From Escherichia phage VpaE1_ev108, in sequence record LR597658: a stretch of 64,000 nucleotides of DNA; one strand, 5' to 3'. The position numbers and the translations under genes were made by a program. The notes beneath the pieces are model-generated. The model did no database searches and had not been told where the DNA came from. It saw nothing but the letters and a program-made list of their open reading frames with translations. Below are positions 43,578-47,930 of the stretch, piece by piece (the first letter of the stretch is position 1; each line of letters opens with the position of its first letter).

Positions 43578-43603
43578 AAGCCTCCTTAGTTGGGGGCTTT
43601 TTA
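43578..43603 (+). terminator. rho-independent terminator
   Basis: aagcctcc-ttagtt-gggggctt followed by ttttt. Confidence 0.6.
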
Positions 43604-44373: not shown

Positions 44374-44574
44374 ATGAAGATGAGAGTAAAAGACAATTTT
44401 AAAGTTATTGACCACCGTTTAGTGGAACTCTCATCTCTTTCCAATGAGGTAATGATTGAACGTCTTAAGAGAGTTGAATCACGAAGGAAAGAGATTGCAG
44501 ATGAAATTCATGAACTGGACAAGATTGAAAATGGATTGAAGGCAGAACTACAACGAAGAGGTGCTAATGTCTAA
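44374..44574 (+). CDS. hypothetical small coiled-coil protein
   Basis: 66-aa ORF overlapping primase start. Confidence 0.5.
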   Translation: MKMRVKDNFKVIDHRLVELSSLSNEVMIERLKRVESRRKEIADEIHELDKIENGLKAELQRRGANV

Positions 44575-46552
44575 AGGTCGTAAATTGAAAGAGGCTGGTC
44601 AGTTTGTTGGTCATTGCGCATGTCCACGTTGTGGTTCATCAGATGCTGGTTCAATCTATCATCATGACGATGATTCTTATTCAATGACTTGCTTTAGTTG
44701 TAACAAAGGTTTCCCAGAGTGGGATTTTGATAAAGGACAAATCGTGAGCACTTATTCTACTGGTTCAGACAATAAAAACCGTGCTTTCCGTGGAATGGAC
44801 TTAGAAGATGTAAAAGAAAACCTAGAAGCAATGGACTTAAAAGACAGGAAGATTCCTGCAAAAGTTCTTGAGCGTTTAGGTATCAAGGTTGACATTGACA
44901 GTGATGGTGAAATTGATGCGCATTTCTACCCAACTTACAAACGCAATGAAGATGGCAAGCTAGAGCATGTTGGCTACCGTGTTCGTCACCGTTACCCAGA
45001 AGACCATCCAAAAGAGCACCTACGTGGTAAGTTAAAAGACTTTTCTGGTGGTGTTGGAGACATTAAAGGTGAGCTGGCAATGTTCGGTTCATGGATTGCT
45101 CCAGAAGGTGGTAACCGTCTATTCATCTGGGAAGGTGAGATGGAATGTGCGACAGCAATCTATATGACTTCTCTTGCGATTAAAGACAAGTCTCGTCGTA
45201 AGAATTACTGTCACGTATCTGTTCCATCAGGTGCAAACATCAAGTCTATCAAAGATAACTATCAGTACATTACATCCTTTGATGAAATTTACTTGTGCTT
45301 TGATAACGATGAAGCAGGTGCTAAAGCCACTAAAGAGGCTGCTGGTATCCTCCCTATTGAGAAGGTTCGTTTATTCCAGTACCCAGAGGGTGTAAAAGAC
45401 CTTAACGAGTGGTGGACAAAGTTCTATAAAGAGAAAGATACAGTTCTGGAAGGATTTAAGCAGCGTATCTACAATGCACCTCGTTACTGTCCTGCTGGTA
45501 TCAAGAACTTCGCAGATGGTTTTGAGGCAATGAAGAATCGTGGTCAGATTCCATTGATTCCTTTCCCAGAATCTTTCGGAGATTTGAACAGACTGACTTA
45601 TGGTGGTTACGGTTTAGGTGAGATTACAACTCTGGCAGCACCATCTTCAGTGGGTAAATCTGCATACACTCGTGAAATGATTTATACTGCTTGGAAAGAT
45701 ACCGATTACAATATTGGTGTAATTCCTGTAGAGGATACCTATGAAGAGTTGATGGAGATGCTCTGTGCAATCCACCTGAGCAAGCAGATTTCTGAGATTC
45801 CTTATGACGAACGTGATTGGGATGAATTGAAGGAAGCACACGCAGAACTATCTAAAGGTCGTCGTATCCACATCGTAGACCATCAAGGGGCAATTGACCA
45901 AGATAACTTGCTGGAGTTTGTTGACTATCTTGTTAACAGCTTGGACTGTAAGATTATTATTCTTGACCCTATTACGTTGGCTCTGTCACGTTCAGATACT
46001 GATGAAGAGGAAGTTTTATCTGAGCTATTGCGTCGTTGTAAACGCTACCAGTATGCACAGGTAAACGTCTGTCACGTTCGTAAAAGTGCAGGTGGTCAGA
46101 AGGCTAACTCCGAAGGTGGAGATATCTCTGAAGAGGATATTAAAGGCTCTGGTGCGTATTTCCAGATTTCTATGAACAACATTCTGTTAATGCGTAACAA
46201 GGTTGACCCAGACCCTGTTAAGAAAAACTTGACAAAAATCAAGTTAACTAAGTGTCGTCGTCACGGTAAGTCAACGGGTATTGCTGGTCATACTTGGTAC
46301 AATCCAGATACAGGACGTCTCATTAAAGCATCTGGTTGTGGAGTTGACATTGATGGCGCAGCAGAAAATATTCGCCAACAGTTTGGTATTGGTGAAGCTG
46401 AAGACCATTACGATGACTCTTTGCCACATTATGAGGATGAAGTGTTTGACCGTGAGACTGGTGAAGTCTATACTGAAGAGCAGCGTCAAAGCTCAACGAT
46501 TCCACCTGTATTAAGTGAGGATGCAGATGACTGCCCATTCGAAACTGAGTGA
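44561..46552 (+). CDS. DNA primase/helicase (zinc-binding primase plus DnaB-like helicase)
   Basis: 663 aa; N-terminal zinc finger CACPRCGS ... CFSC; Walker A APSSVGKS. Confidence 0.8.
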   Translation: MLMSKGRKLKEAGQFVGHCACPRCGSSDAGSIYHHDDDSYSMTCFSCNKGFPEWDFDKGQIVSTYSTGSDNKNRAFRGMDLEDVKENLEAMDLKDRKIPAKVLERLGIKVDIDSDGEIDAHFYPTYKRNEDGKLEHVGYRVRHRYPEDHPKEHLRGKLKDFSGGVGDIKGELAMFGSWIAPEGGNRLFIWEGEMECATAIYMTSLAIKDKSRRKNYCHVSVPSGANIKSIKDNYQYITSFDEIYLCFDNDEAGAKATKEAAGILPIEKVRLFQYPEGVKDLNEWWTKFYKEKDTVLEGFKQRIYNAPRYCPAGIKNFADGFEAMKNRGQIPLIPFPESFGDLNRLTYGGYGLGEITTLAAPSSVGKSAYTREMIYTAWKDTDYNIGVIPVEDTYEELMEMLCAIHLSKQISEIPYDERDWDELKEAHAELSKGRRIHIVDHQGAIDQDNLLEFVDYLVNSLDCKIIILDPITLALSRSDTDEEEVLSELLRRCKRYQYAQVNVCHVRKSAGGQKANSEGGDISEEDIKGSGAYFQISMNNILLMRNKVDPDPVKKNLTKIKLTKCRRHGKSTGIAGHTWYNPDTGRLIKASGCGVDIDGAAENIRQQFGIGEAEDHYDDSLPHYEDEVFDRETGEVYTEEQRQSSTIPPVLSEDADDCPFETE

Positions 46553-46622
46553 TAGTTATAAAAGAGAGGGGTTCACACCCTTCTTTGAAGAAAAAAGTTT
46601 AAATAAATTTCAGGAAGAGTGT

Positions 46623-46651
46623 TTGACAAAGATTGATAGGTTCTATAGAAT
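46623..46651 (+). promoter_or_regulatory. sigma70-like promoter TTGACA-17-TAGAAT
   Basis: TTGACA 46623-46628, 17-nt spacer, TAGAAT 46646-46651. Confidence 0.6.
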
Positions 46652-46802
46652 GCTCTACATGAAATGTGATGGAGGTGTTGAGGTAGAAGAAAAGTTCCAT
46701 CACAGTATTATCACAGTCACTATTACTATACCTGAACATAATATTGGTTGGCTGTTTATAATGAAAGAAAATGTGTTTGAATATCAAGTATATCGGAGAA
46801 TA

Positions 46803-46952
46803 TCATGAAACACTCTAAAGCATTTGAAAAAGTTTTTGGGGATTCCTTAAAAGCCACTGCTGGAAAACCAGCAAAATACTATGAAGAAAAACGTGTAAGA
46901 ACTGGAAAAACTGCACGTAAAGCAGCTTCTAAAGATAAGCACAACTTCCAGT
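46803..46952 (+). CDS. small Lys-rich basic protein (49 aa), absent from ORF track
   Basis: ATG 46803 after RBS ggagaatatc; MKHSKAFEKVFGDSLKATAGKPAKYYEEKRVRTGKTARKAASKDKHNFQ; below the 60-aa cutoff. Confidence 0.5.
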
Positions 46953-46959
46953 AATTAAT

Positions 46960-46988
46960 GTTTGACAATAGAGTATCAACAAATTAGA
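46960..46988 (+). promoter_or_regulatory. sigma70-like promoter TTGACA-17-TAGAAT
   Basis: TTGACA 46960-46965, 17-nt spacer, TAGAAT 46983-46988; upstream of 47027..47884. Confidence 0.6.
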
Positions 46989-47026
46989 ATTGGTACTCTT
47001 CATAAATTGAGATAGAGGTTTAAATA

Positions 47027-47884
47027 ATGTCTAAAGTTGTTAAAATGAAAGCTCCGGTAGAGAAGTACAATGGTACTGAACGTCAAACTCTGCGTTACCT
47101 TCTGAAAGATGTTTGGTTTTATTACCTGAACACTTCACCACGTCCGGGAAAAGGTAAATCCATTGATAAGAAATTCCCAGGCAAAGACTGCAACTACAGT
47201 GTTTCAATTCTGGCAGAAGATGGTAACAAGCTGTTTAAAGAGTTTACTAAGTCTAAGAAAAACCCAGAAGGTTGGGATAAAGTTACTACTGAAGCAGTTG
47301 ATGCAGATGACTTCGAAGAGAAGTTTGGTTGCAAACCACCATTTGAAGCAGACACTTACTACATCTTGAAAGTAAGTCGTGCAGCAGCTTATAAAGATGG
47401 TGCTGTGTGGACAGCTAAACAGTCATTCCCTGTAATGCTGATTGAAGAAGTAAATGGTAAGCGTGTAGCTGTTAAACAGCCGATGAAGAAAATCAAAGCT
47501 CAAGCATCTGATAAACATGAAGATGACAAGAACTATGATGTAATTCATCCAGATATTGCAGTTGGTAACGGTTCTTTTGGTAGTGTGATTCTTTCTACTC
47601 ACTTCTACACTTTTGAGAACAATGTTCTGACAAAACCTATTCAGGAACAGTTTATCATTGATACTCTTGTACCTTACACTGGTGGTAACGGTGCTAACGG
47701 TGAACCTGAACTGGATGAAGACGAACTGGCTATGCTTGGTCTTGATGGTGTCGAAGATAACGGTGAAATCACTGAAGAAGACGCAACAGACCACAAACCT
47801 TCGAACGATTCTGATGATGGCGATGACGAAGACTTGCCAGACCCAGATGACGAAGAAGATGAAGACTTCGATACAGAAGATTAA
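47027..47884 (+). CDS. putative single-stranded DNA-binding protein with acidic C-terminal tail
   Basis: 285 aa; C-terminus DDGDDEDLPDPDDEEDEDFDTED; sits between primase-helicase and RNase H-like gene. Confidence 0.45.
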   Translation: MSKVVKMKAPVEKYNGTERQTLRYLLKDVWFYYLNTSPRPGKGKSIDKKFPGKDCNYSVSILAEDGNKLFKEFTKSKKNPEGWDKVTTEAVDADDFEEKFGCKPPFEADTYYILKVSRAAAYKDGAVWTAKQSFPVMLIEEVNGKRVAVKQPMKKIKAQASDKHEDDKNYDVIHPDIAVGNGSFGSVILSTHFYTFENNVLTKPIQEQFIIDTLVPYTGGNGANGEPELDEDELAMLGLDGVEDNGEITEEDATDHKPSNDSDDGDDEDLPDPDDEEDEDFDTED

Positions 47885-47901: not shown

Positions 47902-47930
47902 AAAGCCCTGTACTTAGTATGGGGCTTTTT
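47902..47930 (+). terminator. rho-independent terminator
   Basis: aaagccc-loop-ggggcttt followed by ttt. Confidence 0.6.

Follow-up and report, generated by a model that had tools for sequence, protein, structure and literature searches.

The window analysed here is a 64,000-nucleotide stretch of DNA from Escherichia phage VpaE1_ev108 (sequence record LR597658). On its + strand, a first-pass annotation had drawn attention to an open reading frame (ORF) for a basic protein of 49 amino acids (aa), which lies at 46805-46954 and whose translation was borne out exactly. The same annotation took the ORF to be unannotated, which is wrong: it is a CDS in the public records of wV8 (gp111), Alf5, Felix O1 (FelixO1p245, ORF103), SUSP1 (AVU07_agp053) and Moogle, it carries an annotation in >200 GenBank records, and it belongs to PHROG 4424, a family of 'unknown function' of which the window gene is a member without any difference (phrog_4424 profile, E = 7.4e-36, residues 1-49 on positions 1-49 of 49). 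The proteins of wV8 and Felix O1 share 100% identity with that of the window, and in Felix O1 the product of ORF103 is listed with 49 aa and a pI of 10.2. The 701 bases around the ORF match 243 phage records (wV8, Felix O1 and other Felixounavirus among them), with the best nucleotide matches at 99.1% identity to E. coli O157 typing phage 1 (ECTP1) and vB_EcoM_Alf5, and the window was therefore assigned to a Felix O1-like myovirus genome (Felixounavirus). The order primase-helicase, gp110, 49-aa gene, 285-aa gene is the same in wV8, Alf5, Felix O1, SUSP1, Moogle, Arno162 and L039, and an exonuclease follows the 285-aa gene in the neighbourhood that the window shares with the FelixO1p245/wV8 gp111/agp053 family. 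By sequence and synteny, the 49-aa gene is thus already known and annotated as a hypothetical protein.

The gene lies at the end of a unit headed by a T7 gene 4-like primase-helicase gene (44567-46552, + strand), whose product terminates in an acidic stretch with the final residues CPFETE. Between this gene and the 49-aa ORF there is no intergenic gap; the space is occupied by a conserved 93-aa ORF on the same strand (46527-46808; wV8 gp110, FelixO1p246, SUSP1 agp052, here gp110), which belongs to PHROG 4982 (phrog_4982 profile, E = 2e-50). The gp110 ORF begins within the primase-helicase gene, with an overlap of 26 nt, and its own stop overlaps the start of the 49-aa ORF in an ATGA sequence (46805-46808, + strand) of the kind that marks translational coupling. 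The ribosome-binding site claimed earlier for the 49-aa ORF is present as a Shine-Dalgarno sequence, GGAG, at 46795-46798 (+ strand), inside the C-terminal YRR codons of gp110 and 6 nt ahead of the ATG. All Felixounavirus, Suspvirus and Mooglevirus sequences retain CGGAG at this place, and Arno162 and the metagenomic relative L039 have GAGG; the ATGA overlap is conserved in the three genera, and is replaced in the latter two by a stop and a start 1-4 nt apart. The same four bases, with a Shine-Dalgarno sequence within the last codons of the upstream gene, are found in coupled overlapping gene pairs of phage and bacterial operons; in the present case the coupling is read from the arrangement of the genes, and a candidate internal promoter, described below, could also give a transcript without the start of gp110. 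Since the conserved stop-start overlap points there, the 49-aa gene is best placed at the end of the primase-helicase/gp110 unit, as its final cistron, and its protein would be translated by coupling to gp110. A fusion of gp110 and gp111 by frameshifting was considered and rejected, as a TGA at 46778-46780 closes the 49-aa frame nine codons before the ATG; no slippery heptamer was seen, on reading the sequence, in the 27 nt between this TGA and the ATG.

Several predicted transcription signals surround the pair. Inside the primase-helicase gene, at its 3' end, lies TTGACC-17-TATACT (46446-46474, + strand, 10/12 matches to the sigma-70 consensus), which corresponds to 'P102' as predicted for Felix O1 by Whichard et al., who screened intergenic sites only (PMC3185647 section 2.5). 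Just past the stop of the 49-aa ORF, an intergenic promoter motif for the 285-aa gene (TTGACA-17-TAGAAT, 46962-46990, + strand) is conserved in every Ounavirinae lineage examined, in the forms TTGACA/TTGCAA-17-TA(G/A)(A/G)AT and with an inverted repeat bracketing it in each. In the window this repeat (AGAGTATCAA...TTGGTACTCT, 46970-46999) forms a hairpin with a 10-bp stem and 2 covarying pairs, which brackets the spacer and the -10 element. The unit is closed after the 285-aa gene by a Rho-independent terminator (47902-47930, + strand) that is annotated as a terminator in wV8. Within the first 5 min, Felix O1 transcribes the flanking ORFs 101 and 105 (PMC3185647). The RT-PCR table published for this phage lists ORF104 as positive and marks ORF102 and ORF103 'NT' (not tested). 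A search of the literature for transcription-start, RNA-seq, ribosome-profiling or proteomic data on Felixounavirus found none.

The two small genes are inherited together. Felixounavirus, Suspvirus, Mooglevirus, Arno162 and L039 carry both gp110 and the 49-aa gene, and Enterobacter phi63_307-like contigs and Erwinia Kolesnikvirus carry neither. Where the pair is missing, the 285-aa gene begins ~100 nt past the primase-helicase stop, and the conserved promoter and hairpin lie between the two genes in the same arrangement as in the window. This joint presence and absence across Ounavirinae indicates that the two genes form an accessory cassette, inserted where the primase-helicase unit ends. 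The record counts agree with this: the 49-aa peptide is found in ~262 records, gp110 in ~256, to which the divergent Arno group has to be added, and the 285-aa protein in ~301. The gp110 proteins can be aligned from end to end in five lineages, among them an unannotated homologue in Arno162 that has a GTG start (L005, 890-1183). Within the genus, the two halves of gp110 differ in their rates of change: the N-terminal half is conserved (dN 0.02, pS 0), whereas the C-terminal half is hypervariable (dN 0.13, pS ~0.33). A PDB profile match of gp110 to the anti-CRISPR protein AcrIIA4 was not significant (E = 0.15; hhalign probability 14%) and is recorded as a lead only.

The first-pass annotation had named conservation of the reading frame in relatives as a check on the 49-aa ORF, and on this point the comparison is favourable. 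A tblastn search with the 49-aa peptide returned ~262-264 phage records, in Felixounavirus, Suspvirus, Mooglevirus and four Pectobacterium phages of the Arno162-like group, and the frame was intact across 35 loci, with the exception of one frameshifted database variant (P0008). The start, the Shine-Dalgarno sequence and the length of the ORF are conserved in the four lineages, as is the core SKAF.KVFG.S[LM].AT.GK.A..[YF]..KR[VI]RTGKTAR, down to 57% identity; the final 5-11 residues are variable. Among Felixounavirus sequences almost all changes in the ORF are synonymous, with 0 non-synonymous changes in most sequences. Between genera, synonymous divergence over codons 1-41 is saturated (dS 1.1-3.0) and dN is 0.07-0.15, corresponding to an omega of 0.03-0.10, which indicates that selection acts on the amino-acid sequence. 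Given that both the frame and the peptide are conserved under strong purifying selection, the ORF is, by sequence comparison, a genuine gene for a small basic protein.

The encoded protein is hydrophilic (GRAVY -1.27) and strongly basic (pI 10.2, net charge +8.7), is devoid of any hydrophobic segment, and contains an invariant basic stretch, KR-R-GKTAR. AlphaFold, run with the family alignment, predicts three short helices (residues 5-18, 23-32 and 36-47) at low confidence (mean pLDDT 66), the amphipathic N-terminal helix being the best modelled. The sequence has no match at E <= 1 in Pfam, NCBIfam or PADLOC, and a Foldseek search of the model against the PDB gave 0 matches; among known nucleic-acid-binding, host-takeover and anti-defence families, no significant profile or fold match was found in Pfam, NCBIfam, PADLOC or the PDB. 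When 5.8 billion proteins were searched by words, and 1.84 billion representatives exhaustively by profile, Ounavirinae-type proteins of 45-49 aa were all that emerged, apart from one odd match in the profile search (P0019, 202 aa), which is a tandem-repeat artefact. The best PDB profile match, to a protelomerase (E = 0.83), was attributed to chance, and a reading of 'RTGKT' as a Walker A motif was rejected because the glycine spacing is unfit.

Of the explanations that compete with a cassette member expressed from the upstream unit, the one that survives best is the original proposal, namely that the ORF is a stand-alone early gene with a strong sigma-70 promoter of its own at 46623-46651 and that its product is a host-takeover or nucleic-acid-binding factor. 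The promoter part of this proposal stood only in half. The motif TTGACA-17-TAGAAT is indeed present on the + strand (TTGACA at 46623-46628, TAGAAT at 46646-46651; 11/12 matches, an optimal 17-nt spacer and an A/T-rich stretch upstream), but that it belongs to the 49-aa gene is not established, as it lies within codons 33-42 of the conserved coding gene gp110 and 153 nt before the 49-aa start codon. Motifs of this class are enriched in the window: on the + strand there are 4 sites with at least 11/12 matches compared to 1.3 +/- 1.2 in shuffles (~3-fold), and 19 sites with at least 10/12 compared to 9.0 +/- 2.9, with three of the 19 clustered within 550 nt around the 49-aa ORF. These counts favour the proposal as regards the class, yet any single site could be a chance occurrence.

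Conservation of the motif is divided in the same way. It is invariant in 18 of 18 unique Felixounavirus sequences, and Suspvirus and Mooglevirus keep TTGAC[T/G]-17-TAAAGT in the same register, with A2 and T6 retained, even though the residues encoded there differ (YRM in the window, CKV, GKV or AKV in these two genera). The rare Leu codons at the motif are also invariant, TTG (14% of Leu codons) at the -35 element and CTC (6%) just past the -10 element. TTGACA itself encodes the Leu-Thr of the conserved gp110 sequence 'ECLTKI'. Against the promoter, the Suspvirus and Mooglevirus version matches the consensus at 9/12 positions, and Arno162 offers only an 8/12 match; and third-position diversity around the motif is no lower than in neighbouring segments, with no clear constraint at the nucleotide level. 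This half of gp110 is not saturated for synonymous change, and retention of the motif is therefore weak evidence. A terminator stands directly ahead of the dNMP kinase/primase genes with no consensus promoter behind it, which makes secondary promoters plausible (PMC3185647). Weighing these observations, we regard the motif, at somewhat less than an even chance, as a working secondary promoter. It could give the 49-aa gene more independence from the upstream operon, but even a working promoter at this position would yield a transcript that includes the 3' half of gp110, and the ATGA overlap speaks for joint expression of gp110 and the 49-aa gene. As a whole, with a SUSP1 orthologue that has no phenotype (see below) and a product that has no similarity to known takeover factors, the stand-alone early gene is an unlikely reading.

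Functional data are available for the SUSP1 orthologues from a transcriptome-wide CRISPRi-ART screen that targeted every annotated CDS (PMC11879866). Blocking the translation of agp053, the orthologue of the 49-aa gene, gave a fitness of -0.06 (p = 0.59, 4 guides) and was scored 'Not Fit' (PMC11879866 supplementary file 16), with individual guides scattering from -2.6 to +2.2, the latter value from an excluded guide (PMC11879866). The gp110 orthologue agp052 was likewise Not Fit (fitness -2.83, p = 0.98), whereas the two genes that follow were both Fit (PMC11879866): agp054, the orthologue of the 285-aa gene (fitness 2.8, p = 3e-7), and agp055, the exonuclease (fitness 1.87, p = 0.005). A single guide against agp054 lowered the plaque count from ~1-2e10 to ~5e5-5e6 (PMC11879866). 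The primase-helicase gene itself was Not Fit in this screen, that is, false negatives occur (PMC11879866). Because the screen misses true essentials, the result for agp053 indicates no evident requirement on the laboratory host and leaves dispensability unproven.

The nearest functional analogy for the 49-aa gene is provided by T7 genes 4.3 and 4.5, and it is one of position only. Like the 49-aa gene, these lie immediately downstream of a T7-type primase-helicase gene, their products are small and basic (gp4.3, 70 aa, pI 10.0; gp4.5, 89 aa, pI 9.9), they are annotated as 'not essential', and they have a secondary promoter, phi4.3, in front of them. Homology was rejected (hhalign probability 0.4% for gp4.3 and 0.3% for gp4.5). 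The arrangements also differ, in that phi4.3 is intergenic and specific for T7 RNA polymerase whereas the Felix O1-like motif resembles sigma-70 sites and is intragenic, and in that the 49-aa gene forms a coupled-type pair with gp110, unlike T7 4.3 and 4.5. Small accessory genes embedded in the T7 replication region are inhibitors of host factors, which speaks for the stand-alone reading considered above. T7 gp4.5 has been reported to act on the host factor Lon.

Taken together, the 49-aa gene is already catalogued and is probably the second member of a two-gene accessory cassette, which it forms with gp110 and which is appended to the primase-helicase gene at its 3' end. It would be translated from the early primase-helicase transcript or, alternatively, from a shorter one starting at the sigma-70-like motif inside gp110. 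Judged from their arrangement and co-occurrence, gp110 and the 49-aa protein may jointly constitute a conditionally dispensable accessory factor, in which the basic segment of the 49-aa protein would bind a polyanionic partner, either nucleic acid or an acidic protein surface. As the fast C-terminal half of gp110 fits host-facing proteins, we lean slightly to a host-directed role over one at the replisome. A more elaborate version, which we regard as improbable, combines these elements into a previously unrecognised two-component module: the invariant basic peptide would be the effector that clamps a polyanionic target, the fast-evolving C-terminal half of gp110 would direct the module to particular hosts or regulate it in a host-specific way, and an intragenic sigma-70 promoter of the module's own would allow expression independent of the primase-helicase message. 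Candidate targets of such a module would be host nucleic acid, an acidic host protein involved in defence or takeover, or the acidic F-x-T-E tails discussed next.

Those tails are the basis of an alternative in which the cassette serves replication, the peptide and gp110 binding the F-x-T-E acidic tails of the helicase and of the 285-aa protein and thereby tuning their exchange on the polymerase. The gene does sit in a replication module of T7 type, flanked by the helicase gene and the SSB-like gene, and the two flanking proteins both end in strongly acidic tails with a terminal motif that co-varies between lineages (helicase/285-aa protein: CPFETE/DFDTED, GFQTE/GFQTE and IPFRTE/VPFKTE), to which a peptide with a charge of about +9 would be complementary. 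The argument is, however, purely one of charge complementarity and gene position. Phages without the cassette, Kolesnikvirus and the phi63_307-like group, keep the helicase and SSB tails, which indicates that the replisome does not need the cassette, and agp053 has no phenotype in SUSP1 whereas the adjoining agp054 and agp055 are 'Fit'. We give this replisome role only a small probability. That the ORF encodes no functional protein at all, and arose by chance, regulates as an upstream ORF whose peptide does not matter, or is conserved as an RNA or DNA element, would fit its very short length, the lack of a knockdown phenotype and the low-confidence structure model, but is very improbable: the omega values essentially exclude it, start, Shine-Dalgarno sequence and length are kept in four lineages, a search of the region against Rfam gave no credible match, the terminator-like hairpin on the minus strand inside the ORF (46857-46874), tried as an RNA element, is not conserved in other genera, and the ORF cannot be a leader ORF for the 285-aa gene because a promoter lies between them.

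The gene is ordinary and matters little, being already in GenBank and PHROGs and having an orthologue whose knockdown in SUSP1 is without fitness effect. What the present analysis adds is the purifying selection on the protein, its co-inheritance with gp110 as a probably coupled pair, and the placement of the promoter motif inside gp110. If it is true that the pair acts on a host factor or a host defence, it would be another small accessory effector in a widely used group of Salmonella and E. coli phages.

The neighbouring 285-aa acidic protein, which lies outside the cassette (47027-47884, + strand; Felix O1 ORF104, SUSP1 agp054), is the more useful by-product. In T7, the helicase gp4 ends in ...DTDF and the single-stranded DNA-binding protein (SSB) gp2.5 in ...DGDF, an arrangement like that of the helicase and 285-aa tails and one of which the shared tail motif is the hallmark, and both T7 tails dock on the polymerase. 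The 285-aa protein has no match in Pfam or among PDB sequences, hhalign against T7 gp2.5 gave a 25% probability over 25 columns, and the AlphaFold model is unusable for the fold (pLDDT 39.6). The orthologue agp054 is essential in SUSP1, where it was called completely hypothetical (PMC11879866). Given the tail motif that co-varies with that of the helicase, and its essentiality in SUSP1, the 285-aa protein is a good candidate SSB of the phage and a probable analogue of the T7 gp2.5 type; the tail motif thus gives a testable assignment of this protein as a phage single-stranded DNA-binding protein.

A shared C-terminal motif, F-x-T-[ED], follows an acidic run in both the primase-helicase and the acidic 285-aa protein. 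We compared the 285-aa gene (window 47027-47884) and the 3' end of the primase-helicase gene (46480-46552) with their counterparts in six loci of related phages (L003, L004, L005, L037, L039 and L040), and found that the motif co-varies across lineages, such that the helicase and 285-aa tails form the pairs CPFETE/DFDTED, GFQTE/GFQTE and IPFRTE/VPFKTE. These paired tails mirror those of gp4 (...DTDF) and gp2.5 (...DGDF) of phage T7. The 285-aa protein is probably the phage SSB. Direct comparison of T7 gp2.5 with the 285-aa protein yielded only 25% in hhalign, and the AlphaFold model of the 285-aa protein failed (pLDDT 39.6). In the CRISPRi-ART knockdown screen of phage SUSP1, the homologue of this protein, agp054, is scored 'Fit' and is described as completely hypothetical (PMC11879866).

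The intergenic region 5' of the 285-aa gene contains a TTGACA-17-TAGAAT promoter motif (within window 46962-46999), the spacer and -10 element of which are flanked by an inverted repeat, AGAGTATCAA/TTGGTACTCT. Both the motif and the repeat are kept in every Ounavirinae lineage examined (L003-L006, L028, L033, L034, L037, L039 and L040), including those that lack the cassette of gp110 and the 49-aa gene (gp111), and the stem of the repeat includes two covarying pairs. No T-run was found 3' of the repeat at window 46962-46999. The repeat could be an operator, or else an RNA hairpin at which the transcript from upstream is terminated or processed. Further upstream, a good intrinsic terminator, CTCCTTAGTTGGGGGCTTTTT (window 43582-43601), lies about 20 nt 5' of the dNMP-kinase gene, which heads the primase-helicase gene string. 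No consensus promoter was found 3' of this terminator, so that expression of the string must depend on read-through or on internal promoters.

A TTGACA-17-TAGAAT motif within gp110 (window 46623-46651), an intragenic promoter candidate, is accompanied by two rare leucine codons, TTG at codon 33 and CTC at codon 43 (window 46623-46655), which account for 14% and 6%, respectively, of Leu codons. The TTG codon, which sits at the -35 element, is invariant in all 24 unique gp110 sequences from three genera, and the CTC codon, directly after the -10 element, is invariant in 23 of the 24. An ATG in the gp110 frame (46659-46661), present only in Felixounavirus, is located 8 nt past the -10 element, so a transcript that starts at the candidate promoter could encode the C-terminal half of gp110 with almost no leader. 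This half (codons 45-93, window 46659-46805) is hypervariable, even among members of Felixounavirus (dN = 0.13, pS about 0.33), and adjoins the near-invariant 49-aa gene; in the same Felixounavirus pairs, the N-terminal half of gp110 shows zero synonymous changes. Possible causes of this hypervariability are an arms race, a relaxation of constraint and a recombination boundary.

Between the primase-helicase gene and the small basic gene of Pectobacterium phage Arno162, we identified an unannotated, GTG-started 97-aa ORF (L005 890-1183, equivalent to about 75664-75957 of MK290737.1) whose alignment with gp110 spans both proteins in full, with about 18% identity, which indicates that the cassette is complete in this phage too. 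Guides against agp052, the SUSP1 homologue of gp110, were strongly depleted, with a gene fitness of -2.83 (PMC11879866, supplementary files 16 and 46). The direction of this depletion is opposite to that of essential genes, and no discussion of it by the authors was found in the passages of PMC11879866 that were covered. The gp110 profile (alignment A5) weakly matched the anti-CRISPR protein AcrIIA4 (PDB 5vw1_B and 5vzl_C) over 42 columns spanning a helix and three strands; this likeness is not significant (hmmsearch E = 0.15, hhalign probability 14%) and is retained as a lead only.

Among database records, P0008, an NCBI variant of the 49-aa protein from an 85.8-kb contig, shifts frame past residue 35, at the run of A in GGAAAAACT (window equivalent 46904-46910), and its last 15 residues are unrelated to those of the 49-aa protein. 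Either this is a sequencing error, or the variant is natural and can dispense with the C-terminal third. Two GenBank records labelled 'Campylobacter phage A132/A126' (MG065664.1 and MG065668.1) and one 'Staphylococcus' record match this Felixounavirus region at 98.7% identity, and are probably contaminant or mislabelled assemblies.
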